Shown piece after piece: positions 3,366 through 37,316 of a DNA stretch of 64,000 nt. Source of the DNA: Candidatus Omnitrophota bacterium (GTDB lineage: Bacteria; Omnitrophota; Gorgyraeia; Zapsychrales; Fredricksoniimonadaceae); assembly GCA_903901225.1 (NCBI GenBank), contig CAIUQE010000034.1, positions 17,391 through 81,390 on the forward strand, given 5' to 3'. The notes beneath the pieces are model-generated. The model was not told the DNA's origin. It searched no databases and saw only the letters and a list, made by a program, of their open reading frames with translations. The stretch's first letter is position 1. Each line of letters starts with the position of its first letter. The position numbers and the translations under genes were made by a program.

Positions 3366-3818
3366 TCAATACTGGTAGCGCCGGATCCATTTCTGAATAG
3401 CAGGATCTTGAGGATCGTGGGAAGTCTTTCCGCCTCTGACCATCTGCTTAAATTCCTCATAAGGATCATTCCCACCCCCCTGCTTCCTCAAATGATCTTT
3501 ATCGTTAACATATAGATAAATGATAATGCCAGGTTTGTTCGAGAAGCAAAACATGATCCTGTACCGCTGCAACCCCTGTTTGTACCTTCTGTACTTCCTA
3601 AGATCACCGGAAAGCACGTATTCAGGCCTGTTGGGATCTTCTGGAATGATCTCTACCGTGGCCCTTCTGATCCTTGCAGCCAGTTTTACCGTCTCATGCT
3701 GGGAAAATTCATCCTTTGAAAGAGTGGCATGTAATTTCTTTACCTGCTCTTTCAGCTTGCCGATCCGCAGGGCAAATAACTCATGGCATTTGAGATAATA
3801 CTTACTCATCTTCCGCAT
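3366..3818 (-). CDS. yhaV: type II toxin-antitoxin system YhaV-family toxin
   Basis: Clear similarity to E. coli YhaV as I recall its sequence. RYRIMFCFSNKPGIIIYLYVNDKDHLRKQGGGNDPYEEFKQMVRGG matches RYRLFFRYSEKEKVIILGWMNDENTLRTYGKKTDAYTVFSKMLKRG. Confidence 0.75.
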   Translation of the reverse strand: MRKMSKYYLKCHELFALRIGKLKEQVKKLHATLSKDEFSQHETVKLAARIRRATVEIIPEDPNRPEYVLSGDLRKYRRYKQGLQRYRIMFCFSNKPGIIIYLYVNDKDHLRKQGGGNDPYEEFKQMVRGGKTSHDPQDPAIQKWIRRYQY

Positions 3819-5082: not shown

Positions 5083-5084
5083 AG

Positions 5085-6647
5085 TCAACCTTTCGTAATG
5101 ACCCTTAACGCAGTCAGGATATCTACCATTCCACCTGTGTCCAACCCGCAATATGCCTCCAGATCAGCATAAACTTTGGCACGATCAATCGGGTCAACGC
5201 CCGCGCCGTAAGTTACCCTGGAATATTCTGACGTGGCCTGCCCGCCGTCGGCAATGGGCATTCCCTCATAACCCTTGCCTGTTAAAGCCGGCAGGACCTT
5301 CTTGAGCGACGCGGAGCCGTGCTCATCAGGGTGGTAATAATAGAACTTCTGGAATGGCACCAGAAGATCGACCAGACGGAGGTTGATATCTTCACAGCAC
5401 TGCCGGTACGCGGGGAACTGCTCGCCTATCTCCTTCAAACGCAATTTCTCAAAGGACTGGTTGTACGCCACCACATCCCCTTCCTGCCCCATGCAGGCGC
5501 TTAAAGCTTTGATGAATTCCAGGCGAGGATCATCGGCCTTTTTATGCAGAAAAGCATGATGTTCAACCGGCCCGCCGGGCGTTCTTTGAATATGCACAGA
5601 GAACTGGAACGGGATCTGCTGGTACGGCCGCGTGCCATTAAAGCGCGGCAGGACCTCGAAGATCGTCTCAAAATCCATAAAGTAGAGCGGGTAGCGCAAA
5701 CTTTTGATGAACGTATTGATCTCATCAAGTTCCACATGCGGTTGTTGCGTTATCGCGCAAACACGCTGGATCTGCTGGTTGGCCGACAGTTTAACGTTAT
5801 CAGGAATATCTTTAAGGCGTAAAACACCCTGGTCGATAAGGTCAAACCCTTTGGACTTCCCCCGATACAGCTCAAGCACGTGCTCCCTGGGAAGGAACGC
5901 CCAGCAGATCGGGATCATCTGGCACTCGTAAGGATCGCGGCAATGCTCCCTTATCGATATGTGCGGACACGCGGGCATGTCGATGATATCGAGAAACCCC
6001 TTCACCAACGACGGTGTCACACCGTAGAACGGCTTGATCTCTTCCGTGACATCAAGCAGGGTAAATAATTCATGGGGGTTAATATCCCCGTCACGCACAT
6101 ACGTGTTATTCACGTGCATCAAATAGCAGCGGCCGATCCTGATCCCGGCCTGTTCGTAACAATAACGCTGGAACGCGATGTCCTGTAAATAGACATCCTT
6201 GCACTTCGTCGAGCATTTCACCTCGATCACGTCCCAGACGCCGGGCTTTTCAGGTGAAGGCCGCAGGATATCCGCGCGGGCATAAAGCCGCCCCGCCTTG
6301 ATCCCAGCCTCATAGATGGGCTTCGGGTCTTTTGACGCTAATAGCGCCTGCGTTTCCGCCAGGTTCTTCAAAAAATCATCTTCCTGGACATGAACCCCTC
6401 CCGGAAAGCACCTGGTCGCCAATTCACTGACGAGATGGCCCGTATCGAAAACTTTCTGCAGCGCGGCGGTCGGTTCGGGAATTTCTAGCGGGGCATTGCA
6501 ACGCGTCCAGAGCAATTTAGGGCACTGCAAGCCGTTGAGGAATTTGGACTTGGTAAGAAGCTTCGGGTCCCTGCGGACTTTTGTTTCGATCAAGAACTCC
6601 AGCAAACCGTCGCTGCGTTCTTCCTGATAAAGGTTCTCTTCACTCAT
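5085..6647 (-). CDS. DUF2779-family protein (PD-(D/E)xK nuclease-like N-terminus and a DxE exonuclease-like motif)
   Basis: VWDVIEVKCSTK has a D..EVK motif. YFMDFETIFE is the DUF2779 signature. Length is 520 aa. Confidence 0.65.
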   Translation of the reverse strand: MSEENLYQEERSDGLLEFLIETKVRRDPKLLTKSKFLNGLQCPKLLWTRCNAPLEIPEPTAALQKVFDTGHLVSELATRCFPGGVHVQEDDFLKNLAETQALLASKDPKPIYEAGIKAGRLYARADILRPSPEKPGVWDVIEVKCSTKCKDVYLQDIAFQRYCYEQAGIRIGRCYLMHVNNTYVRDGDINPHELFTLLDVTEEIKPFYGVTPSLVKGFLDIIDMPACPHISIREHCRDPYECQMIPICWAFLPREHVLELYRGKSKGFDLIDQGVLRLKDIPDNVKLSANQQIQRVCAITQQPHVELDEINTFIKSLRYPLYFMDFETIFEVLPRFNGTRPYQQIPFQFSVHIQRTPGGPVEHHAFLHKKADDPRLEFIKALSACMGQEGDVVAYNQSFEKLRLKEIGEQFPAYRQCCEDINLRLVDLLVPFQKFYYYHPDEHGSASLKKVLPALTGKGYEGMPIADGGQATSEYSRVTYGAGVDPIDRAKVYADLEAYCGLDTGGMVDILTALRVITKG

Positions 6648-7257: not shown

Positions 7258-8451
7258 ATGAAACGATCCATTCACCTCTGGCTGACAGCCGGCTTCATCC
7301 TGTTATTCGCGATCGGCTTTGCCTGGCGGCACCCGCGCACGGCGCCACTGCCGGCCAATGCCGCGCTGGGTTACGGCGGACCCATTGCCATCGCCCTGAC
7401 CGCCTCGTCGACGGGAGAGATCACGGATGTCAAGGTTGCCCGGCACAATGAAACACCTTCTTACGTCACGGGCATGCCGGAATTCCTGCGGCAATTCAAC
7501 GGGCGCACGGTCCACAGCCCCCTGAAACTCGGGCACGGCATCGACGCCATGTCCGGCGCGACCGTCACCAGCCGCGCCATCCTCCTGGCCGTAAAAAAAG
7601 ACCTCTTCGGCAAGATGAACCTGCCCCTGCCCGCGGATGACACGGCGGGTGACTTTCCGTGGGCGCAGGTCCTTGCGCCGCTGTTCCTCTGGCTGATCGC
7701 CCTGGCCGCGCTCCTGCGCCGCAGCAGTGCCTTGCGCTGGGCCGCCATGGCGGGCGGGTTCGTGTATTTCGGGTTCATCACCCATACCATGCTTTCCATC
7801 GTCCAGGTCGTACAGGCCGGAATATGGCACATCCCCGGCTTCAGGGATGATCCTTTGTGGTGGCTCCTCATGGCCACGGGGCTGGCTGGCGGCTTTTTAT
7901 TTGGCCGCGTCTACTGCGGCAGCCTCTGCCCTTTCGCGCTGGTGCATGAACTGCTGCACCTGCTGGTGCGGCGCAAACGCCCGGCATCACCGGGCATCTC
8001 GCCGAACCTCGACCGCAACGCGCGGCTGATCAAATATGCTTTGCTCTTTGTGATCACGGGCCTTTGCTTTGTTCTTGGCAACGCCGCGGCGGCGAACATG
8101 GAACCGTTCATCACGCTTTTTTCAGGGCATGGCGGCAAGATGGCGTGGTTTTTCCTCGCGCTGATGTTCGTCATGGGCATATTCTACTTCCGCGCCTGGT
8201 GCGCGTACCTCTGCCCGGTGGGCGCGCTGACCGGCCTGGTCGCCCTATTCAGTGTCAACAAGATCGTCCCGGCCAAAACCTGCACGGCCTGCGACATCTG
8301 CGCGAACGCGTGTCCGTCCAACGCCATTGCCAAAGGCGCTCATGCCCGTCCCGTCGTTGACATGACGGAATGCATCGCCTGCGCGAAATGCCTTCGCGCC
8401 TGCCCGGTGAACGCGCTACAATGGAAACGTGGCCCCGATGAAAAAGCATGA
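7258..8451 (+). CDS. NosR/NapH-like membrane protein with an FMN-binding domain and 4Fe-4S ferredoxin domains
   Basis: FMN_bind signature GYGGPI...ITDVKV..HNETP..IDAMSGATVTSRA. CX3CP motifs CGSLCPF and CAYLCPVG. Two CxxCxxCxxxCP ferredoxin motifs near the C-terminus. Confidence 0.7.
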   Translation: MKRSIHLWLTAGFILLFAIGFAWRHPRTAPLPANAALGYGGPIAIALTASSTGEITDVKVARHNETPSYVTGMPEFLRQFNGRTVHSPLKLGHGIDAMSGATVTSRAILLAVKKDLFGKMNLPLPADDTAGDFPWAQVLAPLFLWLIALAALLRRSSALRWAAMAGGFVYFGFITHTMLSIVQVVQAGIWHIPGFRDDPLWWLLMATGLAGGFLFGRVYCGSLCPFALVHELLHLLVRRKRPASPGISPNLDRNARLIKYALLFVITGLCFVLGNAAAANMEPFITLFSGHGGKMAWFFLALMFVMGIFYFRAWCAYLCPVGALTGLVALFSVNKIVPAKTCTACDICANACPSNAIAKGAHARPVVDMTECIACAKCLRACPVNALQWKRGPDEKA

Positions 8452-8629
8452 CAATATCTTCATTTTTTTGACCGCCGTGGCCGTGGCTTCCGTTGCCTGG
8501 ATCATCACGGATAACATCGCGACGTCTTACGGCCAAATGGCCATGACAACCGCGTCGATCCGCCAAAATTTCATCAACATGAAACTCCCCCTGCACGAGG
8601 GAAAATACTGGAAGCCGTCCGATGAATAA
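8438..8629 (+). CDS. small single-TM membrane protein (63 aa)
   Basis: Its ATG at 8438 overlaps the upstream stop, and its TAA overlaps the ATG of the downstream radical SAM gene (ATGAATAA). One hydrophobic helix, IFIFLTAVAVASVAWIIT. Confidence 0.4.
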   Translation: MKKHDNIFIFLTAVAVASVAWIITDNIATSYGQMAMTTASIRQNFINMKLPLHEGKYWKPSDE

Positions 8630-9596
8630 GGTCGAATGCACCCTTTGCCCCCGGCGCTGTAAGATCCCCGAAGGCGGGCGTGGCGACTGCCGCGTGCGCA
8701 CCAACGTGGGCGGGAAACTTTTTTCACTCGTTTACGGCAACCCCTGCTCGGTGCATATCGACCCGATCGAGAAAAAACCGTTCTTCCACATTGTCCCGGG
8801 CTCGACCGCTTTCTCCATCGCGACCGCGGGCTGTAACCTGCACTGCCGTTACTGCCAGAACTGGCAGATATCCCAGATACCGCCGGAAGAAGCGCACAGC
8901 GAACAACTCCTCCCCGAAGAAGTTGTCCGCCAGGCGCTGGCCAACAACTGCCGGAGCATCGCCTACACCTATTCCGACCCGATCGTGTACTACGAGTACA
9001 CCTGCGACACTGCCGTCCTCGCGAAGGAAAAAGGCCTCCTGAACATCCTTGTGACCGGCGGCTACATCGAACAGGAACCTTTGCTTGAACTGTGCAAGTC
9101 CGCGCACGCGATCAAGGTCGACCTCAAAGGGATCACGGAAGAATTTTACAAGAAAATGTCGCGGGCCACGCTGAAACCTGTCCTCGACGCCATTGTCACG
9201 ATCAAAAAATCCGGCGTGTGGCTGGAGCTGTGCAACCTCATCGTCCCGACGTGGAATGACAGCGACACCGACCTGCGCCAGCTGATCCGCTGGGTCAAAG
9301 ACAACTGCGGCGAGGACACGCCGCTGCATTTTTCAAAGTTCTGGCCCATGTACCAGTTGCTGGACCTGCCGCCCACCCCTGACGCGACCATCACGCGCGC
9401 GTGGGAAATGGCCAAAGCCGAAGGCATGCGCTTCGCCTACGTGGGCAATATCCCCCAGCACCCCGGCAACAACACCTACTGCCCTCATGACGGGAAACTC
9501 CTGGTGGCGCGCCTCGGCTACGAGGTGCTGGAGAATCATATTAAAGACGGGAAATGTGAATACTGCGCGAAGGCTATACCGGGGATATGGAAATGA
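8622..9596 (+). CDS. AmmeMemoRadiSam-system radical SAM enzyme
   Basis: N-terminal CTLCPRRCKIPEGGRGDCRVR cysteine cluster plus the radical-SAM CNLHCRYC (Cx3Cx2C) motif, in a 324-aa protein. Confidence 0.7.
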   Translation: MNKVECTLCPRRCKIPEGGRGDCRVRTNVGGKLFSLVYGNPCSVHIDPIEKKPFFHIVPGSTAFSIATAGCNLHCRYCQNWQISQIPPEEAHSEQLLPEEVVRQALANNCRSIAYTYSDPIVYYEYTCDTAVLAKEKGLLNILVTGGYIEQEPLLELCKSAHAIKVDLKGITEEFYKKMSRATLKPVLDAIVTIKKSGVWLELCNLIVPTWNDSDTDLRQLIRWVKDNCGEDTPLHFSKFWPMYQLLDLPPTPDATITRAWEMAKAEGMRFAYVGNIPQHPGNNTYCPHDGKLLVARLGYEVLENHIKDGKCEYCAKAIPGIWK

Positions 9597-26507: not shown

Positions 26508-27854
26508 TCAAAACTGGGTGCGGTACTTGAGAAAAACGCGGTCGTCCGGAGTTGGGCGGGCTGATGTCGATGGCTCTGTACCCTGTTGCAAGGGGAGGAT
26601 CTCTTTCTGCGCGCCGAGCGTGACCTTGTCCGTCACCCGGTATTCACCCTCCAACGTCTGCGTCAGCGCGCGCTGATGCGCCTCATCCGGAGTGTTGGCC
26701 ACAGCCACGCCATAACCAACATCGAGTTTGTCAGAAAGATCCCTGTTAAAGGTCACACCCTGTTTCGTCTGATCAAGCTTGTAAGATATGCCGGAAAATC
26801 CGAAAAATCCGGCCACCCGTGACCCCGCCCCGCCAAAAAAGAAATAGTCGATGAAATCACCGGCCAGCTCGGGCGTCATCTTGCGGCCTCCCGCGGAAAC
26901 CCCCGCGAGGTTCCACTTCTTTCCCGTCGTCAGCATCAGCAAAAGCTGCTCTTCGGGCAAAGGGGGATCGGATACAAGGCGCACATCCGGCTTCGAGCGC
27001 GTGCCTTTGGCGGAAATATCAATATGAACGCGCGCGACCGTCGCTGTCGCGTGGACATCAAGCTCAGGATTTGCCGGATCACCGGAAAAGGTCAGCCGGC
27101 TTTCACCCAGGTGCAGAAGGGCACGCGGCGCCTGCAATATCCCGCCGTGGATATCCAGTGTACCGTACGTTCCCCACAACCCGCTCGTACGCGAAAAGTA
27201 CAGCGCACAACTGACAGGCGCGTCACGCAATAGAAACCCGCCCTTGGGAATATGCCCGACCACGAACACACCCGCGAGCTCTGGTTTCTCCAACGTCCCG
27301 GTCAATTGCAGATCAAGGCTCTTCAATTCTCCTTTTAACGGCGGAGGGTTCCTGAAATGCCGGATGACCTTCCGCAGGACGTCAAGATCAAGGCTGGAAG
27401 AATAAATTTCCGCGTGATAACGCCCCCGACTCAACCTGCCGTTGAGGACCACGGGATCGGCTCCCGGAGCAAGGATACGGGCATTGTCGAGCATGACATC
27501 AAGGCCGTTGAACGCCGCCCGCGCCAGGCTCACGTCCAGTTCCTGCACGCGCACGATACTTCCCGCCGGAAGGAATGACGGCGCGATAGCCTGCAGATTG
27601 AAGATCCGCACCCCGCGCCATAAGGAGCCCTCGCAACGTTCATAGGCCATCTGCTCCGGGCCTAAAAAATACGTTGATGCCGCGCGCAGTGAAACCCTGG
27701 CACCCTGGGGCATAACGAGGAAGAAGGCGACAGCCCCGGCGAGCACGACGAAAGCAACAAGCAACGTGAGCAGCGTGAACCCGATGAGCCGGAACACGAA
27801 GGGCCTGGCCACGTCAGCGCCTGATCTTTCCCAGGAGCCGCAAAAGGCCGTCAA
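26508..27854 (-). CDS. TamB/AsmA-like protein (DUF490-type C-terminal domain) with an N-terminal TM anchor
   Basis: N-terminal hydrophobic anchor. C-terminal LVSDPPLPEEQLLLMLTTGKKW motif, characteristic of the TamB DUF490 domain. At 448 aa it is much shorter than canonical TamB. Confidence 0.5.
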   Translation of the reverse strand: MTAFCGSWERSGADVARPFVFRLIGFTLLTLLVAFVVLAGAVAFFLVMPQGARVSLRAASTYFLGPEQMAYERCEGSLWRGVRIFNLQAIAPSFLPAGSIVRVQELDVSLARAAFNGLDVMLDNARILAPGADPVVLNGRLSRGRYHAEIYSSSLDLDVLRKVIRHFRNPPPLKGELKSLDLQLTGTLEKPELAGVFVVGHIPKGGFLLRDAPVSCALYFSRTSGLWGTYGTLDIHGGILQAPRALLHLGESRLTFSGDPANPELDVHATATVARVHIDISAKGTRSKPDVRLVSDPPLPEEQLLLMLTTGKKWNLAGVSAGGRKMTPELAGDFIDYFFFGGAGSRVAGFFGFSGISYKLDQTKQGVTFNRDLSDKLDVGYGVAVANTPDEAHQRALTQTLEGEYRVTDKVTLGAQKEILPLQQGTEPSTSARPTPDDRVFLKYRTQF

Positions 27855-28476
27855 GGATGGTCAACGGGTGCGGCGGGCATCCCGGGATATAAAGGTCAAC
27901 GGGGATGAGCGCGCCGGCTCCCGTCGAAGCTTGAGGGCCGTCGGCGAATAATCCGCCCGCGATCGCGCACGTCCCCACCGCGATAACGATCTTCGGCTCA
28001 GGCATGGCGGCGTAGGTCCGCACGAGGGCGTCGTGCATGTTGCGCGGGACTGGCCCCGTCACCACAAGGCCGTCGGCATGTCGGGGGGAGGCCACGAACT
28101 GGATACCAAAACGGCTCAGGTCAAACACTACGGTATTAAGGACATTAAGATCAAGTTCGCAGGCATTGCATCCGCCCGCGGAAACCTGGCGCAATTTGAT
28201 GGAACGACCGAACACCCGCAGCATTTCCGCGTTCAACGCGCGGGCCAGCTTTTGCCCGTCCTCACCCGCAACAAGGTCACCGCGCGTGGATGCGGCCATG
28301 CGAAAGTCCCCGGCATACGCCACCCCGTCATCGGGCGCGAACGTTACGGCCCCGGCATCCACTCCGGCGGCCAGGGGCCTGCCGCGATATCGTGGCGGCA
28401 GCACAGGCGCTATACCTTTGGGGAACGCCAGGGTGCGCGCGCGTTGCCTCAACCGTGTCATGATGATCTTCAGCAT
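27814..28476 (-). CDS. NuoB / hydrogenase small-subunit-like protein (HyfI/HycG family)
   Basis: GGCNACELD, GTCAIAGG and PGCPPHP cysteine motifs, giving four Cys for one [4Fe-4S] cluster. Confidence 0.8.
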   Translation of the reverse strand: MLKIIMTRLRQRARTLAFPKGIAPVLPPRYRGRPLAAGVDAGAVTFAPDDGVAYAGDFRMAASTRGDLVAGEDGQKLARALNAEMLRVFGRSIKLRQVSAGGCNACELDLNVLNTVVFDLSRFGIQFVASPRHADGLVVTGPVPRNMHDALVRTYAAMPEPKIVIAVGTCAIAGGLFADGPQASTGAGALIPVDLYIPGCPPHPLTILDGLLRLLGKIRR

Positions 28477-28488
28477 ATCAATCCCGCC

Positions 28489-30000
28489 TCACAGGTCATG
28501 CCCGCAGTAGGACAAATTAAAGCTCTTGTTGCACAACGGAAAATCCGAGATCTCCCCGCCGCGCATCGCCAGGGCCAGCGCGTGCCAGTTATGGAACGAC
28601 GGGTCCTTGACCTTGTACCTGGTAAAAACCCCCCGATCGTCGGTGATCCCGGCATGCATGATCTCGCCGCGCCAGCCTTCGACCAGCGACAATGCCAGCA
28701 TCCCGGGCTGCATGGGACCCGGCGGGACAAATATCCCGCCCTTGGGCAAGGTCGGCAATACCTTGAGCAGGAAATCCAAAGAACGCAAAGCCTCCTGTTT
28801 CTTCACCAAAGCGCGCGCGTGCACATCGCCCGTGGCGCTCACCGAAAGGGGGATGTGATGGAACTGCCACATCCCGGAAGCATAGTTGATGCGAACGTCG
28901 CGCTCGAGATGGCTGGCGCGGGCCGCGGGACCGACAACGCCGAATTTCTTCGCGTCGTCCATGGACAGCACGCCGACCCCCTCAAAACGCGCGAGCACCG
29001 ACGGCCTGGAAAATAGCAGCTCACTCACGTCCTCGAATTCACGGCGACACTGCTTCAGTTTCCGGCAAAAGTCATCGGCCATGGCCGGCTCAATATCAAA
29101 CACAACACCACCCGGCCGGCACAACCCCTTGCCGAAACGATTGCCGGTCAAGGCCAGCAAAAAGTTGAGGTAATCGCCACGCATGCGGCCAAAATACGCG
29201 CTCGTCGGAAGGAAGCCCGTGTCCATCCCCATGGCGCCAAGGTCGCCGGTATGATTCGCCAGGCGCTCCAATTCAAGCGCCACCGCGCGGATAGCCTGCG
29301 CTCTCGGCGGGATCACGCAACCGGCCAAAGATTCCACCACTTCGCAGAACGCCGTTGAATGCCCCAGGGCCGTGTCGCCCGCGATGGCTTCGCTTAAAAA
29401 CGCTCCTCGCTGAACATCAACACCGCGCAGCATGGGTTCAATGCCGCGGTGCTGGTAGCCGAGCTGGATCTCCAGATGAAGTATTTCTTCCCCGTGGCAC
29501 TGGAAACGGAAATGCCCCGGCTCGATGATGCCCGCGTGAACAGGCCCGACGCCGACTTCATGGACTTCGTCGCCGCCCACCGCGTAAAAAGGATACACGC
29601 CGGGGATCACCTGGCGGGATATGTCAGGCCAGATATCCGCGGCACCGCGGTAATTGGAATGGTAGCGCAAGGGCTTGGGCCACGGATGCCCGTCTGGCAC
29701 GACCGCCCATTGCTCCGCGATCTCACGCTCAAAAGCATGGGCCTGCACAAGATCCTTGGCCAGGCTTTCATAACGGGGGCTGTCCGCCGGAAGCCGCGTC
29801 GAAAAGACTTCCAGCGACGCCTCCTCGTCAAAACCAATGACCGCGTAAAGGCGCACGCTCCCGTCATCCAGCCGGTCGCCGAAAAGGTTGACCAGCCGCC
29901 CCTCGCCGTTACAGGCATCGATGACCCGCGCGCGAAATTCCCCCGCGAGAAGTTCCGGGACATTTTTCAGCGACGCGCGCCCGCCATTGAATAATTCCAT
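28489..30000 (-). CDS. fused NuoC/NuoD-like subunit (group-4 hydrogenase large-subunit homolog lacking the NiFe-binding cysteines)
   Basis: GPVHAGIIEPGHFRF signature. The N-terminal CxxC position reads AGDTALGHSTAF and the C-terminal DPCxxC position reads DPSFHNWHA, so there are no Ni-Fe ligands. Confidence 0.75.
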   Translation of the reverse strand: MELFNGGRASLKNVPELLAGEFRARVIDACNGEGRLVNLFGDRLDDGSVRLYAVIGFDEEASLEVFSTRLPADSPRYESLAKDLVQAHAFEREIAEQWAVVPDGHPWPKPLRYHSNYRGAADIWPDISRQVIPGVYPFYAVGGDEVHEVGVGPVHAGIIEPGHFRFQCHGEEILHLEIQLGYQHRGIEPMLRGVDVQRGAFLSEAIAGDTALGHSTAFCEVVESLAGCVIPPRAQAIRAVALELERLANHTGDLGAMGMDTGFLPTSAYFGRMRGDYLNFLLALTGNRFGKGLCRPGGVVFDIEPAMADDFCRKLKQCRREFEDVSELLFSRPSVLARFEGVGVLSMDDAKKFGVVGPAARASHLERDVRINYASGMWQFHHIPLSVSATGDVHARALVKKQEALRSLDFLLKVLPTLPKGGIFVPPGPMQPGMLALSLVEGWRGEIMHAGITDDRGVFTRYKVKDPSFHNWHALALAMRGGEISDFPLCNKSFNLSYCGHDL

Positions 30001-30001
30001 A

Positions 30002-31414
30002 TCAGGCCCCCACCAAGGCCGCCGCCGCGCGGATGACCCGCTCCAGCGGCACCGGCAGCCATACGCCCAGGACGAACAAACCCGCCGCCCCCAGCCCGAT
30101 CGCCGTGTTCATAAAAATATTTTCTTTCTTCTCCAGGACGGGCGCCGACGCTTCCCCCTGCGCCGCCTCGAGGATGATCCGCCCGATACCGACGAACACC
30201 AGCGCCAGGCAGGCGACCACCACTACGGCAAGGACATAATGTTTTGACGTGATCGCGGCGTTGAGGATCATGAGCTCGCTGTGGAACGTGGCAAACGGGA
30301 ACATGCCGGTACCCGCCAGGAACCCCACGATCAGGAACACGCCCGTCACGGGGTAAACATGGAGCACGCCCCGCACATCACCGACGCGCGCGGAGCCGTA
30401 TTTCTGGGCGATCGACCCGGCCGTAAAGAACATGATGACTTTCGCCAGGGCATTATTGATCATGTGGAACAAGGCGCCGAAAACTCCCGCCCCGCCGAGG
30501 CCAAGCCCCAGGACCAGAAGCCCCATGTGCTCGATGGACGAATAAGCGAACGCCCGCTTGATGTTCTTTTCGCCGAGGACGAACAAGGCGGGAACAATGA
30601 GCGACAGGACCGCCGAAAGGATCAGGATCGACCCGTAAAATTCCGTGAGGCCTGTTTTATGGCAGATCTGGCTGACACGCAGGAGCGCCAGGAACGCGCA
30701 CTGGGTGAGCGCGCCGGCCATCACGACCACCACCATCCCCGTGGCCTGGCCGTAGGCCTCGGGCTTCCAGCTGTGCGTCGGGGCCAGCCCCATCTTGCAG
30801 CCATAACCGACGAACAGGAAGATGACGCTCAGCTTGAGCCAGTTGACCAGAAGCAGCGGCGCGCCGTTCAATAACGATGGCAACAGGAGCGTGTGGACAT
30901 CGTGCGCGGCGATCGCGAGGAAGAATGTCCCCAGCAGCGCCAGGGCGATGCCGACCGAACAGATCAGCAAATATTTCCAGGTCGCCTCAAGGCTCTGGGG
31001 CGTGCGGTGAAAACTGATGAGCGGCGCGCTCAGCAATGTCGTCGTCTCGACGGAAACCCATAACAGGCCCATGTGGTAACTCATGGCCACAACGCTCATG
31101 GCCGATAATACGAACAGCAGGCAGGCCATGAAGTTCCTGTTGTTCCTTTGTTCATGTTCAAAATACCCGATCATGTAGACCGCCAGGCTCAGGAAAAGGA
31201 ACGTGTCGATCGACAGCATGATCAGCCCCAGCGGGTCGAGCACCAGAGCGCCGTCGAATTGCGCGGCGGGCAGCTGTCGCCAGCACGACGCCACGAGGCC
31301 CGCGTGGACCAGGGCCACGGCCAGGAAAAGGAAGCAGCGCGCCGCGTTCTTCAGCGGCAGGAACGCGAGCAGGGCTCCCGTGAACGGGACAAAGATGAGC
31401 GCCGGCAGTATCAT
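30002..31414 (-). CDS. NuoN/HyfF-like proton-conducting antiporter subunit
   Basis: About 14 TM helices in the Mrp/complex-I antiporter family. Confidence 0.7.
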   Translation of the reverse strand: MILPALIFVPFTGALLAFLPLKNAARCFLFLAVALVHAGLVASCWRQLPAAQFDGALVLDPLGLIMLSIDTFLFLSLAVYMIGYFEHEQRNNRNFMACLLFVLSAMSVVAMSYHMGLLWVSVETTTLLSAPLISFHRTPQSLEATWKYLLICSVGIALALLGTFFLAIAAHDVHTLLLPSLLNGAPLLLVNWLKLSVIFLFVGYGCKMGLAPTHSWKPEAYGQATGMVVVVMAGALTQCAFLALLRVSQICHKTGLTEFYGSILILSAVLSLIVPALFVLGEKNIKRAFAYSSIEHMGLLVLGLGLGGAGVFGALFHMINNALAKVIMFFTAGSIAQKYGSARVGDVRGVLHVYPVTGVFLIVGFLAGTGMFPFATFHSELMILNAAITSKHYVLAVVVVACLALVFVGIGRIILEAAQGEASAPVLEKKENIFMNTAIGLGAAGLFVLGVWLPVPLERVIRAAAALVGA

Positions 31415-32079
31415 CCGCTTTCCCCCATCTTGCCGCGGTTCGATCCCGGTGAACGCTCGAAAGCCTCATTGATGTGATTGACAACGATGGCCATGATGAA
31501 CACGGCCACAAAGATATCCAGCAGGATGCCCATTTCCATAATGACAGGCATGGCATCGAACAAGGAAAGCCCGAAAAGGAATATCCCGTTCTCCATCATG
31601 AGGTACCCCAGCACCTGGGCCACGGCCAGCGTGCGGGTCACCATGATCATGAACCCCAACAGCACCGTCGCGAGTGAACACGGCAGGATCAGGTCGGACA
31701 AAGGCTTGCCCGGCAATTTCAGGGACAAGGACACCCAAAAGGCCCCCGCGATCAGCAGCGCGCCGAAGATCAGCGAAGCGCCGACCCCGATGATCGGCTT
31801 GATCTCGGAACGCATGGACACCCGGCGTATGGCCCAGAACAGGATATACGGGACAAGCCCCGCCTTGAGCACCAGCGTCCCGAGCGCCAGGGTGATATCA
31901 CGCCCGCTCAGGTCATGCGCGTGCAGGAAGAAAGGCACAAAACCCAGGACAAAAGCCTGGGCCGCGAAAAGCTGGATCACCCCGATCAGCCGGTGCGTCG
32001 CCAGCATCGCCAGGGCGAAGAAAACGATAAGAATGCAACTTGCGTCGATCCATGCTGTCATCTTGGCTACATCCTCCAC
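31411..32079 (-). CDS. HyfE-like membrane subunit (duplicated NuoK-like)
   Basis: 222 aa and 6-7 TM helices, similar in size and topology to hydrogenase-4 component E. Confidence 0.6.
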   Translation of the reverse strand: MEDVAKMTAWIDASCILIVFFALAMLATHRLIGVIQLFAAQAFVLGFVPFFLHAHDLSGRDITLALGTLVLKAGLVPYILFWAIRRVSMRSEIKPIIGVGASLIFGALLIAGAFWVSLSLKLPGKPLSDLILPCSLATVLLGFMIMVTRTLAVAQVLGYLMMENGIFLFGLSLFDAMPVIMEMGILLDIFVAVFIMAIVVNHINEAFERSPGSNRGKMGESG

Positions 32080-32993
32080 AAACCCACAATGAACGCGAAA
32101 AAGGCCAGAACGAACGCGATCAGCAAAAAGTTCCTCACGCGGTTAAGCCGCAAACGCGCCATCACCGATTCGACGACCCCCACCAGGACCGCCATCCCCG
32201 TCACCCCGCCCAGAAAAATGCCCATATCCACCGGAGGATATCCCGTCCGGAAAGGAATGACCAGCGGGACCAAAATAGCCGCGAACAGCAAAAGCTTCAC
32301 GGCCGCGCCATAGAGCATATACGCCAAATCAATGCCGCTGTGCTCGAGGATCATCACCTCATGGATCATCGTCAGTTCCAGGTGCGTGTCCGGATCGTCA
32401 ACAGGGATACGGCAGTTCTCCGCCAGGAGCACGATGAACAAGCTCGCCGCCACAAGCAGGAGCGCGGGCCCCGCGTGCTCCCACGACAAAGGCGCGTCAA
32501 CACCGATCATGCCGGACAACGAAAAGCCGTGCGCCAATAACGCCAGCGTGATGAAATTCATGAACAAGGCCAACTCGCCCAGGCACGCGAAAAAAGCCTC
32601 ACGGCTGGCCCCCATGCCTTCCATGGAAAAACCAGTATCCAGGGCGGCCGTGATCATGAAGAACCGGGCCAGGCCGAGCATGGCCGCCAGCCACAGGATG
32701 TCGCCCGTGAACGCCGCCGGGGCCCTGGATATGCCCAACGGCACCAGCAGCGACAACGCCAGCATCGCGGCGAACACGACCAGCGGCGCGGCGCGGAACA
32801 CCCATGTGGTCGTGCGGCTGTAGACGGAATTCTTGAAGAAAAGCCGCCTCAGGTCAAAGAACGGCTGCAGCAGCGACGGACCGGTCCTCCCGGCGAAACG
32901 TGCCTTGACCCTGGCGATCACGCCAACGAATAAAGGCGCCAGGACCAGGACCAGCAGCCCGTGCGAACAAACGTCGAATACCATCATCAGCAT
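32067..32993 (-). CDS. NuoH / HycD / HyfC-like membrane subunit
   Basis: 308 aa, with the NuoH-family N-terminus LAPLFVGVIARVKARFAGRTGPSLLQPFFDL. Confidence 0.75.
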   Translation of the reverse strand: MLMMVFDVCSHGLLVLVLAPLFVGVIARVKARFAGRTGPSLLQPFFDLRRLFFKNSVYSRTTTWVFRAAPLVVFAAMLALSLLVPLGISRAPAAFTGDILWLAAMLGLARFFMITAALDTGFSMEGMGASREAFFACLGELALFMNFITLALLAHGFSLSGMIGVDAPLSWEHAGPALLLVAASLFIVLLAENCRIPVDDPDTHLELTMIHEVMILEHSGIDLAYMLYGAAVKLLLFAAILVPLVIPFRTGYPPVDMGIFLGGVTGMAVLVGVVESVMARLRLNRVRNFLLIAFVLAFFAFIVGLWRM

Positions 32994-33000
32994 AAAAGTT

Positions 33001-34827
33001 TCATTTCAATTTCCAGACCAAAAGGACGAGCAGGAATACAAAAATATACATCAGATACGTCTGCGTGTAACGGATGCGGTTGATATCGATCCGCCGCGAA
33101 AGGCTTGTCAGTCGCCTGAACAAAGGATAAAAGAGCATGCTTTCCGACGCGTCATGGACCGAAGAATGCAGGTCGGCCTTTCCCGGAAAATCAGCCGCTA
33201 TCGATGGAGCCTGGCGCCGGAACAAAAGGACGCCTTTGGCGAATTCCATGACCGGCCTGGCGAAGGAGGAAGCGGTATACTGGAACCGCGGCGCGACGCC
33301 TGTTCCGCCTGAAAACCCACAGTTCCACGTCGGGACCAGTGCCATCGGGCGCAGGCCCGACAACGCCAGCCGCCGCAGGGCTGCCAGCACAAAGGCCAGG
33401 ACCAGAAATATAGCCGCCATGCCCGTGACCATGGCCAGCGGCGCCAGGACATTTTCAACCCCCGAAGGCAGAGCACGCGCGATGTACGCGCCCGCGGCCA
33501 GCGTCAAGCGCACCCAGGGTTGCGGCAGCACCCCGATCACAAGGCACAACCCCGCGAGGACCATCATCGGCACGATCATCCAGACCGACACCTCGTGCAC
33601 GCGTTCCGGCGCCGGAAGGGACCTCGGCTCTCCGAGAAAAACAGTCCCGTAAACTTTTGTGAAACACGCCAGCGCGAGCGCCCCCATCAAAGCCAGCGCC
33701 AGGATCGCCAGGCCGCAAACAACAGCCCCCGGCAACGGCAGATGGCCCAGCCCGTGAAAAAGCCCGAAAAAAATAATGAATTCACTGACGAAGCCGTTGA
33801 ACAACGGCAACCCGCAAATGGAAACAGCCCCTACGAGGAAAAGGGCGGCCGTGACGGGCATGTTTTTTGCCATCCCGCCCAGGCGGTCCAAAGCGCCCGT
33901 ATGGGCCTTCTGGATAACGGCGCCCGCGCCGAAGAACAAAAGCCCCTTGAAGATCGAATGGTTCACGACGTGCAGGAGCGCCCCGCCAAAACCCAACATC
34001 GTCAGGAGCGGATCATGATAACTGCGTCCCAAAAGCCCGCTGCCCAGCCCCAGCGCGATGATGCCGATATTTTCAATGCTGTGATACGCCAGGAGTTTTT
34101 TGAGTTCATGCTGCCCCAGCGCGTAGAGAACACCCATGACCCCGGAAACCACCCCTGTCAGTACGAGCACATACCCGCACCACTCCGGAAGGCCGCCCGT
34201 CATCCATATCACGCGGCAGATCCCGTAAATGCCCGTCTTGATCGCGACGCCGGACAGGAGAGCCGACACGTGCGACGGCGCCGCCGGATGCGCGTGCGGC
34301 AGCCAGATATGGCCCGGGATGAACCCGGCCTTGACCCCGAAGCCGACCATGGCCAGAAGAAAGACCGTTCCCGCGATAACGGGCGGGAACTGCGCCCGCG
34401 CGATCATGTCAAAATCCATGGACCCCGCCGTATGAGCCATCAGCAGGAACATCAGAAAAAGGCAGAACGTGCCCCCATGCGCCATGACCAGGTAAAGGAA
34501 CCCCGCCTTGCGCGCCGCGGGATCCTCGTCGTTAAAAACGATCAGTAAATAGGTCGCGATCGACATGATCTCCCACGCGCCCAAAAACAGCACCACATTG
34601 CTGGCCGTGGCGATGACCACCAGCACCAGGGCCAGTACGATATAAAAGAAAATATGCGGCCCCAGCGGCTTTTTCCCGGCGTAAGCGCGCATGTACCCCG
34701 CGCCATAGATCCCCGCGCACACCACGAGTAGCGTGATCGCCACAAGGAACACCGCGCTCAACAGGTCGATCCTGAAAGTGAACGCGCCGAAAGGTACCTG
34801 CCAGGCCGACTGGAATAGGGTCCCCAT
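33001..34827 (-). CDS. NuoL / HyfB / HycC-like proton-pumping membrane subunit
   Basis: 608 aa with antiporter-family motifs (e.g. WLPHAHPAAPSHVSALLSGVAIKTGIYG). Confidence 0.8.
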   Translation of the reverse strand: MGTLFQSAWQVPFGAFTFRIDLLSAVFLVAITLLVVCAGIYGAGYMRAYAGKKPLGPHIFFYIVLALVLVVIATASNVVLFLGAWEIMSIATYLLIVFNDEDPAARKAGFLYLVMAHGGTFCLFLMFLLMAHTAGSMDFDMIARAQFPPVIAGTVFLLAMVGFGVKAGFIPGHIWLPHAHPAAPSHVSALLSGVAIKTGIYGICRVIWMTGGLPEWCGYVLVLTGVVSGVMGVLYALGQHELKKLLAYHSIENIGIIALGLGSGLLGRSYHDPLLTMLGFGGALLHVVNHSIFKGLLFFGAGAVIQKAHTGALDRLGGMAKNMPVTAALFLVGAVSICGLPLFNGFVSEFIIFFGLFHGLGHLPLPGAVVCGLAILALALMGALALACFTKVYGTVFLGEPRSLPAPERVHEVSVWMIVPMMVLAGLCLVIGVLPQPWVRLTLAAGAYIARALPSGVENVLAPLAMVTGMAAIFLVLAFVLAALRRLALSGLRPMALVPTWNCGFSGGTGVAPRFQYTASSFARPVMEFAKGVLLFRRQAPSIAADFPGKADLHSSVHDASESMLFYPLFRRLTSLSRRIDINRIRYTQTYLMYIFVFLLVLLVWKLK

Positions 34828-35529
34828 TTAACCGGCCCCCGAGGTTTTGGCTTCCGCCACCTGGAAAATCGCCAGGATCTCCTCGCGGGCCACCGACAAA
34901 GGCGCCGTCCGGCTTTTCGCCAGGACAGCCCTTACAGCGTCATCCTGAAGGCAGAACGCCAGCCGGGATAACAGCGACAGATGGCCTTTGAACGAGGAAG
35001 AAAGGATCATGAAAAGCGTATGGACCGGCTGGCCATCCACAGCGGAAAAATCAACGGAATTCTCCAGGAAGAACAAGCCCACCACCGGCTCGACACCGGC
35101 CAGAACGACCGGATGCTTCACGTGCGGGATGGCGATCCCGTCTCCCAGGCCTGTCGTGCCGACCTGTTCACGGGAGAGGAGCATTTCTTTCAACGGCGCT
35201 TTCTGGATGTGCGCGGGCAAAGGAAGAAGGTCGAGCGCGTTGCCCAGGACCTCCTCGCTGGAGGCCCCTTTCAAGCCAAAATGGACACCGCCACGCGCGA
35301 GCGCCGGCGTGATGACATCCTGCCCCTGGCGCGCCCTTTCACAAAGTTTGAGCGCTCCGGGCGTGAGCGCCACCCGTTCCTTCAGCGCCCATTCCAGCAC
35401 CTCGACGGAATTGAAATAATACTGGTCATTGGCCTTGACTGCGGGCATACCCCAGACGTTAAGCCACTGGTAAAGCGTCTTTTCCTTGACCTCGAACGCG
35501 TCCTCGATATCGCGGAATGTCAATTGCAT
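34828..35529 (-). CDS. excisionase-type HTH (HTH_17) fused to a PTS EIIA-type-2 (PtsN-like) domain; putative regulator
   Basis: N-terminal EKTLYQWLNVWGMPAVKANDQYYF is an HTH_17-type motif. The C-terminal domain contains GDGIAIPHVKHP, matching the conserved His of EIIA-Ntr/Fru. The stop directly abuts the start of the NuoL-like gene. Confidence 0.6.
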   Translation of the reverse strand: MQLTFRDIEDAFEVKEKTLYQWLNVWGMPAVKANDQYYFNSVEVLEWALKERVALTPGALKLCERARQGQDVITPALARGGVHFGLKGASSEEVLGNALDLLPLPAHIQKAPLKEMLLSREQVGTTGLGDGIAIPHVKHPVVLAGVEPVVGLFFLENSVDFSAVDGQPVHTLFMILSSSFKGHLSLLSRLAFCLQDDAVRAVLAKSRTAPLSVAREEILAIFQVAEAKTSGAG

Positions 35530-35532
35530 GCG

Positions 35533-37194
35533 TTACCCTTTTTTCAGGTCTTCCAGGATGATGCTCGCGCGGGCGATCGCCTCTTTCATGCTGGAGAAAA
35601 CATTATCCTCGCCAATGAGCTCATAAAGGTTCGCCTTGACGATCTCGTTCAGGGGCTGAACGTGCAGCCCCGTGATGATCAGCGCGACGCGTTCCTTGCG
35701 GCTTTTCTCGTAAAAGCTCCTCAAGGCATGCATACCCGTCGAATCAATGATCGGCACGTCACGGAAACGCAGGATACGCACGCGCGGATTCCCGCCCACC
35801 TGCCGGTCGATCTCGTCAAAACGGCTGGCCGCCCCGAAGAACAACGGGCCATTGATCTCGTAGATCTCGACATCTTTCGGGATAACAAAGTTCGACAACG
35901 GCAAGTCTTCACCCTTTTCATCCGCGTCGTATTCCCTGGCCACCAATTTGATGTTCGTCGCGTCGGACATCCGCTTCATGAAGATGAACGTCGCCAGGAC
36001 AACACCGACCTCGATCGCCGCGTTCAGATCAACGAATACCGTCAGCCCAAACGTTGTTACAAGGACCAAAGCCCCGCCGCGCGACCACTTCAATAGCTCC
36101 ACGAACGAACGCCATTCGCTCATGTGATACGCGACAACAACAAGGATCCCGGCCAGGCAAGCCAGCGGCACATACTTGATCAAGCCGCCCAAAAACAGCA
36201 TGATCAACAGCACCGTGATGGCGTGGATCATGCCGGCTACGGGCGTGCGCCCGCCGTTCTTGATGTTCGTCACGGTCCGCGCGATAGCCCCGGTCGCTGG
36301 GATGCCGCCGAACAAAGCCGAGGCGATGTTCGCCGCCCCCTGCGCGATAAGCTCGGTGTTAGAGCGGTGCCGCGCGCCGATCATCCCGTCGGCCACAATG
36401 GCCGAAAGAAGCGATTCAATGGCACCGAGCAAAGCGATCGTGACCGCGGGCTGGAACAGCTCACGCAGCAACGCGAGATTGATCAGCGGGAAATGCGGCA
36501 TGGGCAGGACGCGGGGCAATTCCCCGAAACGGCTGCCAACCGTCTCAACCTGCAAATGGCACAGGGCCGTCACGGCCGTCACGACAATAAGTGCGATGAG
36601 CGCCCCGGGCACCCGTTTGGATATCTTCGGCGTTATCACGATCAAAAGGACCGTTAAAAGGCCCGTCATCAGCGCGTCGTAATTGACCGTCCCGATGTTG
36701 GCGATGAAAAGGTGCCACTTCTCGATGAATTCCGCCGGGACCTTGCCGATGGAAAGCCCCAGGAAATCCTTCACCTGCGAAGAAAAGATGATCACCGCGA
36801 TACCGCTCGTGAACCCGACGATAACGGAATGGGGGATGAATTTCACGGCGGTCCCGAGCCTGGCGAAGCCCATGATCAACAGAAGGACGCCGCCCATGAG
36901 GGTCGCCAGGATAAGCCCGTCCACCCCGTGCTTTTGAACAATACCATAAACAATGACCACAAAAGCGCCCGTGGGCCCGCCGATCTGCACGCGGCTGCCG
37001 CCAAGCGCTGAAATGATGAACCCCGCGACGATCGCGGTAAAAAGCCCCTTGTCCGGCGAAACACCCGAGGCGATGGCAAAGGCAACGGCCAGAGGGATCG
37101 CCACAACACCCACAATGAGGCCCGCGATGGCGTCAGAAAAGAACTGTGCTTTGGAATAATCTTTCAGGCAGGTGACAAGCTTTGGAGCGAACAT
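35533..37194 (-). CDS. SulP-family anion permease with a C-terminal STAS domain
   Basis: SulP TM core plus a STAS domain (...ILRFRDVPIIDSTGMHALRSF...). Confidence 0.8.
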   Translation of the reverse strand: MFAPKLVTCLKDYSKAQFFSDAIAGLIVGVVAIPLAVAFAIASGVSPDKGLFTAIVAGFIISALGGSRVQIGGPTGAFVVIVYGIVQKHGVDGLILATLMGGVLLLIMGFARLGTAVKFIPHSVIVGFTSGIAVIIFSSQVKDFLGLSIGKVPAEFIEKWHLFIANIGTVNYDALMTGLLTVLLIVITPKISKRVPGALIALIVVTAVTALCHLQVETVGSRFGELPRVLPMPHFPLINLALLRELFQPAVTIALLGAIESLLSAIVADGMIGARHRSNTELIAQGAANIASALFGGIPATGAIARTVTNIKNGGRTPVAGMIHAITVLLIMLFLGGLIKYVPLACLAGILVVVAYHMSEWRSFVELLKWSRGGALVLVTTFGLTVFVDLNAAIEVGVVLATFIFMKRMSDATNIKLVAREYDADEKGEDLPLSNFVIPKDVEIYEINGPLFFGAASRFDEIDRQVGGNPRVRILRFRDVPIIDSTGMHALRSFYEKSRKERVALIITGLHVQPLNEIVKANLYELIGEDNVFSSMKEAIARASIILEDLKKG

Positions 37195-37316
37195 AATACC
37201 CTTTCAGAACAACTCTAGTGGAATTTTTTATAGGATGGGATACGGGTTCAATTATACGCTCTATTAGACGGCTGTAAACAGATACCCTGCGAAAATCCAG
37301 GCAAGCGGGCTTGCAG

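Follow-up and report, generated by a model that had tools for sequence, protein, structure and literature searches.

A predicted operon joining a SulP permease, an HTH-EIIA regulator and an Ehr/Hyq-type complex without NiFe ligands in an Omnitrophota bacterium

What is the role of a complex-I-like membrane module that lacks the ligands of a nickel-iron (NiFe) centre, and what does it mean that its genes adjoin those of an anion permease and of a regulator of the phosphotransferase system (PTS) type? The question is raised by a 64,000-nucleotide stretch of DNA from Candidatus Omnitrophota bacterium (NCBI GenBank assembly GCA_903901225.1, contig CAIUQE010000034.1, positions 17,391 to 81,390 of the forward strand), the whole of which is called the window below. 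Nine consecutive, tightly packed open reading frames (ORFs) occupy positions 26508-37194 of its minus strand. In 5' to 3' order they encode a SulP-STAS permease, a helix-turn-helix (HTH)-EIIA regulator, HyfB/NuoL-like, NuoH-like, HyfE-like, HyfF/NuoN-like, NuoCD/HycE-like and NuoB/HycG-like subunits (here EhrA, EhrB, EhrC, EhrD, EhrL and EhrS), and a TamB-like protein. An earlier note on this stretch had described the same block, and its gene order, strand and coordinates stand; all nine of its family assignments are upheld by Pfam and NCBIfam. Database homologs that carry names likewise put the organism in Candidatus Omnitrophota.

The six structural genes very probably encode an Ehr/Hyq-type complex that is linked to the PTS. 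Judged by its sequence, the locus belongs to the known Ehr/Hyq family and displays lineage-specific traits, namely a vestigial NuoI domain and a SulP gene predicted to be co-transcribed with the complex. The earlier description of an Ehr-type, NiFe-ligand-free, complex-I/Hyf-like membrane module is borne out by the Pfam and NCBIfam matches, by the alignment with HycE and by the gene order in the family. The machine is not of an unknown kind, because the Ehr family has already been named and described. The name is said to have been given by Coppi in 2005 to Geobacter sulfurreducens GSU0739-0745, and the family was reportedly generalised by Marreiros et al. in 2013. About half of the Nitrospirales genomes carry an Ehr/Hyq complex. 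Such complexes are widespread and stand at the evolutionary junction of membrane hydrogenases and complex I, and no function has been assigned to them since 2005; papers of 2023-2025 still state the function of Ehr as unknown (PMC10284858, PMC12342949; also PMC7894505).

The six-subunit complex

A scan of one genome per species yielded at least 593 related loci, 80 of which were retrieved for comparison (single loci are cited by L numbers; the contig of L001 is identical to the window). They come from Planctomycetota, Verrucomicrobiota, Geobacterales (including the cultured Geomonas limicola), Desulfobacterota, Gemmatimonadota, Acidobacteriota, Spirochaetota, Elusimicrobiota, Hydrogenedentota, Fibrobacterota, Actinomycetota and other lineages, more than ten phyla in all. 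Genes were mapped in them by tblastn, which replaced an ORF-based clustering of neighbours that had lost real genes to shadow ORFs in GC-rich loci. The earlier note had suggested a search for its gene order in other genomes, and the six structural genes are indeed found in the same order at more than 80 loci in more than ten phyla, far beyond chance. Two of the loci carry two tandem ehr clusters each (L049:13467-21000 and L076:2538-10000), and the large subunit of the second copy is 38-39% identical. This points to old paralogous subfamilies of Ehr.

The large subunit, EhrL, has E. coli HycE as its best solved homolog in a PDB sequence search (7z0s_E, 1.1e-49), MbsL being a far weaker match (6u8y_L, 2.3e-15). 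Its alignment to HycE, proposed in the earlier note as a check, contains no intact CxxC or DPCxxC motif. The N-terminal RVCGICGFAH of HycE lies opposite AIAGDTALGH of EhrL, with both cysteines replaced, as had been claimed. At the C-terminal position, the absence of CxxC is likewise confirmed, but the site is not the DPSFHNWHA that had been named, which aligns to AATYANWPT of HycE and is not a ligand motif. It is NLSYCGHDL: the DPCYSC of HycE aligns to NLSYCG within the terminal NKSFNLSYCGHDL, and the ligand positions are taken by Ser and Gly. The lone cysteine near this site, Cys499, is one position out of register and is C, A or S among close relatives. Both NiFe motifs, L1 (RxCGxCxxxH) and L2 (DPCxxCxxH/R), are thus missing from EhrL, as judged from the alignment to HycE and from sets of 18, 85 and 120 homologs. 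EhrL ends where mature hydrogenase large subunits end, with no protease-cleaved extension, and the Pfam scan of window ORFs brought up no hyp maturation, endopeptidase or FdhF/HycB partner gene. The earlier note had excluded a hydrogenase and a formate hydrogenlyase (FHL), and for the ordinary kinds of both this is sustained, the module being of the NiFe-ligand-free Ehr type.

The residues that took the place of the ligands are themselves well kept. AGDT..GH and NKSFNLSY.G.DL are conserved at levels of at least 75-95% in 85 sequences from many phyla, are near-invariant in the 120 closest homologs, and are invariant across the set of 18 homologs. The ratio of non-synonymous to synonymous substitution rates (dN/dS) of EhrL is 0.09 against L002. 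The replacement residues are therefore conserved and not drifting, and the former NiFe site, with the motifs AGDTxxGH ... NKSFNLSYxGHDL, is an invariant, cysteine-free polar pocket.

The small subunit, EhrS, keeps its proximal cluster. Its C103, C106, C170 and C200 align to the proximal [4Fe-4S] ligands of Pyrococcus furiosus MbhJ (4.8e-33) and of E. coli HycG (4e-32). Conservation of these four cysteines reaches at least 95% across 72 loci, and their motifs are kept in 116 of the 120 closest homologs. EhrS also has about 92 extra N-terminal residues, a region that in most homologs of other phyla holds two complete CxxCxxCxxxCP motifs. A single-sequence PDB search with the N-terminus of EhrS returned nothing meaningful; the homology is seen only with a family profile, which matches HycF (7z0s_F) from its first residue (1.5e-22) and the NuoI chains of many complex I structures (1e-16 to 1e-12). 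Because of these matches, the small subunit of the family is regarded as a NuoI::NuoB fusion, which agrees with an earlier remark on Ehr in Supplementary Note 4 of PMC6349859, made with reference to Marreiros 2013.

The N-terminal segment of the window EhrS has no cysteine at all: relative to the Cys-bearing homologs, deletions of 27 and 7 amino acids (aa) together with substitutions remove all eight, and the stretch RT..FP....LPPRYRGRP is kept. The earlier claim that NuoI/HyfH is missing is thus right as to a separate nuoI or hyfH gene, of which there is none, but wrong as to the domain, since residues 1 to about 92 of EhrS are a Cys-less vestige of NuoI/HycF. The number of cysteines in this region is at least 8 in 47 of the 72 loci, 4-7 in Desulfobacterales and Gemmatimonadota, 0-1 in all eight Omnitrophota loci, and 0-3 in the nearest 120 homologs from the database, which have 220-229 aa and 64-92% identity; the rhizobial HyqI is without any NuoI segment. 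Against L002, dN/dS is 0.35 in the vestigial part versus 0.06 in the NuoB part. The loss of the NuoI clusters is a lineage-specific degeneration and not a trait of the family. It has occurred more than once, since the cysteines are gone in Omnitrophota, the whole segment is gone in Hyq and the loss is partial in Gemmatimonadota. The proximal cluster and the pocket are kept throughout, and this narrows the site of the chemistry.

In the membrane arm, the hallmark residues of EhrA (WE of transmembrane helix (TM) 5, K of TM7, K of TM8, HxxxHxxxK, and E of TM12) are at least 93% conserved in 59 homologs. EhrB has a conserved ENxRxPxDDPxTHLELTMiHE loop, EhrC conserved membrane glutamates, and EhrD conserved E, K and K/E residues. 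Because every hallmark charged residue is kept, the arm (two antiporter-like subunits, one NuoH-like and one HyfE-like subunit) is predicted to be a competent ion translocator. The dN/dS values against L002 (87-97% identical) are 0.05-0.14 for SulP, EIIA, EhrA, EhrB, EhrD, EhrL and EhrS, which shows strong purifying selection on a functional operon and not a relic. The assignment bears on genome surveys as well. EhrL of the window matches PF00346, and a survey of the Omnitrophota scored respiratory complex I by that family (PMC10066038); surveys of this kind may have counted Ehr operons as complex I.

Regulator, permease and operon structure

The reading of the second gene as an HTH_17-EIIA(Ntr) fusion regulator is upheld, although the match of its HTH part is weak. 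The PDB matches of the EIIA domain are PtsN chains only, and His136 in its GDGIAIPH motif aligns to the His of the motif GNGIAIPH of E. coli PtsN (1a6j), which we take to be the phospho-acceptor His73. The His of GdGiAiPH is at least 90% conserved in 35 operon-linked homologs. The assignment of the N-terminal HTH_17 is based on precomputed weak matches in homologs, and the HTH core is common to these 35 EIIA proteins. With a score of 58.7 bits against the NCBIfam cut-off of 138.7 for the PtsN equivalog, the protein represents a paralogous subfamily with an added HTH domain.

About 52 loci have sequence 5' of the structural genes, and by the tblastn mapping 34 of them, in many phyla, have the HTH-EIIA gene directly there in the same orientation. 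Some loci of the Geobacter type have it at the head of a divergent pair whose other member is a second NuoL-like gene. It is a partner of the Ehr operon across the family. A limited literature search found no earlier description of such a partnership and no report that connects Ehr with either an EIIA protein or SulP. The partner links Ehr to PTS signalling (phosphoenolpyruvate (PEP)/pyruvate, C/N) and makes it accessible to study in Geobacter, Geomonas and other tractable hosts.

A candidate operator is found at a number of these loci (L005-L016, L023, L026, L029 and L058, from Verrucomicrobia, Planctomycetes and others). Tandem TGTCCAA repeats, exactly 10 bp apart, stand directly 3' of a -10-like element and 20-80 nt 5' of the EIIA start codons, and some loci also have an inverted copy, TTGGACA, upstream. 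TGTCC/GGACA occurs 6.6 times per kb 5' of EIIA genes versus 1.8 per kb in the background, a 3.7-fold enrichment. The repeats are put forward as a candidate operator of the HTH_17-EIIA protein, and would fit a DNA-binding autoregulator.

The first gene had been called BicA-like, but its scores are not specific to BicA. The SulP protein reaches 512.5 bits with the NCBIfam model of DauA (cut-off 614) versus 266 bits with that of BicA (cut-off 880), neither equivalog score being reached, and among PDB entries SLC26Dg (5da0, 1.5e-55) is ahead of BicA (6ki1, 9e-48). By these comparisons, it seems closer to DauA and SLC26Dg than to BicA. Its dN/dS against L002 is 0.05. SulP genes occur at only 8 of about 57 ehr loci with enough flank, and those next to ehr in three phyla, namely Omnitrophota (L001-3 and L084), Verrucomicrobia (L075) and Gemmatimonadota (L048 and L034), are 50-58% identical and form a single orthologous subfamily. 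The linkage is recurrent but facultative. The NuoI domain is degenerate in six of the seven SulP-adjacent loci, the window being counted once as L001; the exception, L075, has 10 cysteines. Other neighbours recur. An ACT-domain malic enzyme gene lies directly 5' of the EIIA-ehr operon in two Omnitrophota (L084:1-2617 and L085:3098-4522) and in a Planctomycetaceae locus (L019:2511-3914), a CitMHS carrier is encoded at L084, and an MFS gene lies 3' of ehr in L084, L004 and L035. Together with the DauA-like SulP, these neighbours suggest a physiology of organic acids, in particular C4-dicarboxylates, for Ehr.

The last gene of the block encodes 434 aa with a C-terminal DUF490 domain only, and scores 27.9 bits with the NCBIfam model of TamB (cut-off 825). 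A full-length TamB has about 1200 aa and its gene is adjacent to that of TamA, which the window protein does not fit. The gene is found in L001 and L002 only among 85 loci, and an MFS gene, PgaA or Ppx takes its place in other Omnitrophota. It was considered as a part of the Ehr system and rejected because of this distribution; it is a lineage-specific neighbour that stands outside the module and is probably co-transcribed with ehr.

The coordinates are collected in Table 1. Neighbouring genes are at most 12 nt apart and overlap by at most 4 nt, or by 13 nt if the GTG at 32079 is the start of EhrC, in accord with the tiny gaps and overlaps claimed earlier. The stop codon of the EIIA gene abuts the start codon of EhrA, and the TamB-like gene (its start was taken from the called genes of L001) begins 1 nt 3' of EhrS. 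The 122-nt spacer 5' of SulP contains the sole strong promoter-like site on the operon strand, the probable start of the transcription unit. The region from GGGTATCTGTTTACA onward is kept in the relative L002, despite a different upstream gene there. A short GC hairpin just past the stop codon of the upstream cation-efflux (CDF) gene probably marks the boundary of the preceding unit. Spacing and the single promoter-like site support the prediction that SulP, the EIIA regulator, the ehr genes and the TamB-like gene form one operon, as the earlier note had also proposed.

Table 1. Positions of the operon genes, transcription signals and other features in the window
Feature	Position	Strand	Evidence or remark
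SulP/SLC26 permease with C-terminal STAS, 553 aa	35533-37194	-	Pfam Sulfate_transp 5.6e-87, STAS 3e-13
HTH_17-like domain fused to PtsN-type EIIA, 233 aa	34828-35529	-	Pfam PTS_EIIA_2 5e-20; HTH weak
EhrA, HyfB/NuoL-type antiporter-like subunit, 608 aa	33001-34827	-	Pfam Proton_antipo_M; NCBIfam hydrogenase-4 subunit B, 544 bits
EhrB, NuoH/HycD-like subunit, 308 aa	32067-32993	-	Pfam NADHdh 3.7e-31
EhrC, HyfE-like small membrane subunit, 216-222 aa by start codon	31411-32079	-	NCBIfam hydrogenase-4 membrane subunit (HyfE) 1.6e-22
EhrD, HyfF/NuoN-M-type antiporter-like subunit, 470 aa	30002-31414	-	NCBIfam hydrogenase-4 subunit F, 270 bits
EhrL, NuoC::NuoD/HycE-like large subunit, 503 aa	28489-30000	-	Pfam Complex1_49kDa, weak 30kDa N-terminus; HycE (7z0s_E)
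EhrS, whole gene, NuoB/HycG-like small subunit	27814-28476	-	Pfam Oxidored_q6
EhrS N-terminal part, residues 1-~92, vestigial NuoI/HycF domain	28201-28476	-	Family profile matches HycF, NuoI
EhrS C-terminal part, residues ~93-220, NuoB/HycG-like domain	27814-28200	-	MbhJ, HycG
TamB/DUF490 C-terminal-domain protein, 434 aa	26508-27812	-	Pfam TamB 6e-20
Sigma-70-like promoter, TTTACA-16-TATAAT	37251-37278	-	11/12 consensus; 57 nt 5' of SulP start codon
Short GC hairpin	37301-37314	-	Just past stop of CDF gene; weak consensus match
menE, menC, menA, menB, menD-like genes	59077-63958	-	AMP-binding, MR_MLE/MenC_N, UbiA prenyltransferase, enoyl-CoA hydratase family, TPP enzyme
Very large ORF, 2475 aa	49272-56699	-	Little or no Pfam signal
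Very large ORF, 1696 aa	14596-19686	-	Little or no Pfam signal
Very large ORF, 1208 aa	22260-25886	-	HAD hydrolase domain only
Very large ORF, 822 aa	19702-22170	-	Little or no Pfam signal
WYL/WCX-domain HTH regulator beside DUF2779 protein	3802-6647	-	Low-G+C left end
FMN_bind, Fer4_5, 2x[4Fe-4S] protein, then radical-SAM enzyme	7258-9596	+	NosR/NapH/RnfG-like membrane redox protein

Two other Omnitrophota ehr operons, L083 and L085, whose EhrL is 72-74% identical to that of the window, have a common 5' leader hairpin (L083:3989-4028 and L085:3027-3067; CCCCTGTCATGCTAAAGGA...GGGG, followed by a U-run). It folds at -26 kcal/mol (z-scores -4.9 and -3.1), its inner stem shows compensatory changes, and it looks like an attenuator or terminator. 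The first gene is EIIA in one of the two operons and malic enzyme in the other. No such hairpin is present in the leader of the window itself, and an Rfam search of the window and of L083 and L085 gave no matches.

Elsewhere in the window, the stretches of the four very large minus-strand ORFs have a G+C content of 0.48-0.53, compared with 0.59-0.62 in the ehr operon, and the 87%-identical relative carries a fused version of 2080 aa 3' of TamB. The left end, with a G+C content of 0.43-0.45, may be a mobile or defence-related islet.

Candidate mechanism and its rivals

Taking all the evidence together, we consider the best explanation, with roughly even chances of being right, to be an operon composed of an anion permease, an HTH-EIIA regulator and a six-subunit Ehr/Hyq complex that works as a redox-coupled pump. 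The more specific proposal, which we hold with somewhat less assurance, is that a redox or ligand event at the interface of cluster, pocket and NuoH-like subunit would be coupled to the translocation of H+ or Na+. The likeliest event would be that the single cluster exchanges electrons with menaquinone, with a small donor, ferredoxin or flavodoxin, docking directly at the former place of the NuoI clusters. The source genome can probably make menaquinone, as judged from the men genes of the window (Table 1), and this bears on a quinone-linked role of Ehr; Hyq, the relative without NuoI, has also been proposed as quinone-linked (PMC3357923). Phosphorylation of His136 of HTH-EIIA may set the expression of the operon, and possibly the activity of the complex through contact with the NuoL-like subunit, and through this state the pump would respond to PEP/pyruvate or to the C/N status. 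The pump would be made together with an anion permease, probably for C4-dicarboxylates, whose ion-coupled uptake it could energise or balance.

A number of observations weigh against this explanation. We know of no experiment on any Ehr. With the NuoI clusters gone, there is no demonstrated path for electrons to the remaining cluster. The quinone ligands His38 and Tyr87 of Nqo4 are not conserved, the aligned residues of EhrL being Ile159 and Gly208, and some Ehr-bearing lineages reportedly have no quinone synthesis (PMC6349859). On the side of the regulator, the TGTCCAA repeats are not present at the promoter of the window itself, and neither the window, searched for an HPr/NPr or EI gene, nor the loci, searched for HPr/NPr, yielded a convincing match. 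Finally, an AlphaFold2 model of EhrS built with 47 close homologs reached a pLDDT of only 40. In the search of the window, one weak tblastn match to E. coli NPr (29% over 73 aa, E=3e-4; 57947-58165, minus strand) was rejected as probably spurious; it is part of the N-terminal region of an RNB/RNase II ORF, in the frame of that ORF.

In a rival reading, which is unlikely, the Omnitrophota complex, its electron input lost, would be a non-redox, PTS-gated cation/proton antiporter resembling Mrp, with the peripheral arm and cluster as a structural or redox-sensing cap, and EIIA would gate it directly, as PtsN does with YcgO, TrkA and Kdp. PtsN regulates cation transporters by direct binding, with precedents among K+/H+ antiporters (PMC11808508), and the translational coupling of the EIIA gene to the NuoL-like gene, its pairing with an extra NuoL-like gene in Geobacter-type loci, the intact antiporter residues, and the loss of all eight NuoI cysteines in every Omnitrophota homolog examined are all in its favour. 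However, the near-invariance of the proximal-cluster cysteines and of the former NiFe pocket, like the low dN/dS of the large subunit, is hard to square with a mere cap. The three clusters of most family members indicate a redox ancestry, and the HTH domain and the operator-like repeats favour transcriptional over allosteric control. The same selection analysis effectively refutes the notion of a decaying, non-functional relic of a hydrogenase operon, which one paper assumed for the Ehr of Geobacter (PMC13194489) and which is hardly credible here. The NiFe ligands and the NuoI clusters have been lost and the vestigial segment evolves under relaxed constraint, but the rest of the operon does not; the motifs are invariant in more than 120 homologs at 55-92% identity, all the frames are intact and translationally coupled, and the family is kept across more than ten phyla.

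The earlier note had suggested coupling to the uptake of inorganic carbon or anions, in which the NuoL-like module would power or partner SulP in the manner of DabAB or MpsAB; the cyanobacterial NDH-1MS is a further analogue. This is improbable, and the bicarbonate analogy finds little support. No DabA (DUF2309/PF10070), CupA or carbonic-anhydrase gene was found in the scanned window genes or in the annotated ehr loci, most ehr loci have no SulP, and the SulP is nearer to DauA and to the fumarate transporter SLC26Dg than to BicA. It is true that one SulP subfamily adjoins ehr in three phyla, that the NuoI domain is degenerate in nearly all of these loci, and that malic enzyme, encoded next to ehr at three loci, releases CO2. 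Malic enzyme and CitMHS, however, fit the catabolism of C4-dicarboxylates, and the correlation of NuoI loss with SulP reflects 2-3 independent lineages only and has its counter-example in L075. A broader variant seems to us equally doubtful: in Omnitrophota, and independently in some Gemmatimonadota, Ehr would have shed its input clusters and become a PTS-gated ion engine working with the SulP/STAS permease, so that a module derived from complex I would energise or gate the uptake of a solute (C4-dicarboxylate or bicarbonate) and not serve respiration, HTH-EIIA acting both as the regulator of the operon and as a plug on the NuoL-like subunit, as GlnK does on AmtB.

Coupling to ferredoxin or to a formate dehydrogenase (FDH), as in FHL or in the FDH-Ehr complex proposed for Margulisbacteria (PMC6349859), with electrons passing to an unidentified acceptor, has a low probability for the window version, which is without the NuoI clusters. 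In G. sulfurreducens, growth on formate raises the abundance of Ehr subunits (PMC7894505), the NuoI-type 2x[4Fe-4S] wiring is kept in most family members, and the FHL subunits HycE and HycF are the closest solved homologs. Nevertheless, the operon and the scanned flanks yielded neither fdh nor nuoE/F nor a HycB-like gene, and no FDH recurred in the neighbour clustering of the 80 loci. A still smaller probability is given to an unorthodox 'endo-hydrogenase' (H2:quinone oxidoreductase), as claimed for the Hyq of A. caulinodans, where cells that fix N2 evolve about ten times more H2 once hyq is deleted (PMC2650096, PMC3357923). HyqG shares the Cys-free motifs and HyqI is also without NuoI. On the other hand, Hyq is just 33% identical and its phenotype may be indirect; the NiFe ligands are missing from EhrL, the scanned window ORFs include no hyp maturation genes, and Ehr is not induced by H2 in Nitrospira moscoviensis (PMC12342949).

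Comparison with known systems

The regulator resembles PtsN (EIIA-Ntr) in its EIIA_2 fold, in its active-site His and in its genetic linkage to a module like a cation transporter. It differs in having an N-terminal HTH_17-like domain and in being encoded within the putative target operon and not beside rpoN.

Among solved complexes, E. coli Hyc/Hyf (7Z0S) has the structures nearest to EhrL (its HycE) and to the NuoI-like segment (its HycF); for EhrS its HycG comes second, with MbhJ first, and the membrane subunits score best against the models of HyfB, HyfE and HyfF. In contrast to Hyc/Hyf, the window has no NiFe ligands, no functional HycF clusters, and no HycB, FdhF, HyfA, HyfD or Hyp/HycI genes. 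With complex I (Nuo/Nqo) and the Pyrococcus MBS/MBX complexes, Ehr shares the core of NuoB, C, D and H and the antiporter-like subunits, and in all of them the NiFe site is replaced by another pocket. Unlike complex I, the window operon has no NuoEFG, NuoA, NuoJ or NuoK, and the quinone ligands of Nqo4 discussed above are not conserved.

Hyq is known from diazotrophic alphaproteobacteria. The hyqRBCEFGI operon of A. caulinodans has the same B-C-E-F-G-I order after a small regulator gene and a Cys-free HyqG of 504 aa (PMC2650096, PMC3357923), and the gene order is also that of the Rhizobium hyq operon. HyqG has no CxxC, it shares the Cys-free motifs (SGDS... and FPLCNKSFNCSYSGHDL), its C-terminus FPLCNKSFNCSYSGHDL is nearly identical to that of EhrL, and HyqI has the proximal cluster only; in a rhizobial plasmid homolog, the large subunit is 33% identical to EhrL and has the C-terminal motif in common. 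The differences are that HyqI, of 177 aa, is entirely without the NuoI segment, that hyq is under NifA/sigma-54 control, and that HyqR is a 104-aa XRE-type HTH protein; HyqR of Rhizobium was considered as a homolog of HTH-EIIA and rejected, no similarity being found.

The closest relatives are the Ehr complexes of the G. sulfurreducens type. The window differs from these in that its NuoI-type domain lacks eight cysteines and about 34 residues, while 2x[4Fe-4S] is described for many Ehr; in having a single NuoL-like gene, while Geobacterales have EhrA-1 and EhrA-2; and in having a SulP permease in the operon. In common with them it has the gene set and its order, the absence of CxxC motifs and the retained proximal 4-Cys cluster, and it is 45-53% identical to the homologs of Geobacterales, Planctomycetota and Verrucomicrobiota, with the same AGDT.../NKSFNLSY... 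motifs and, as at many Ehr loci, the HTH-EIIA gene.

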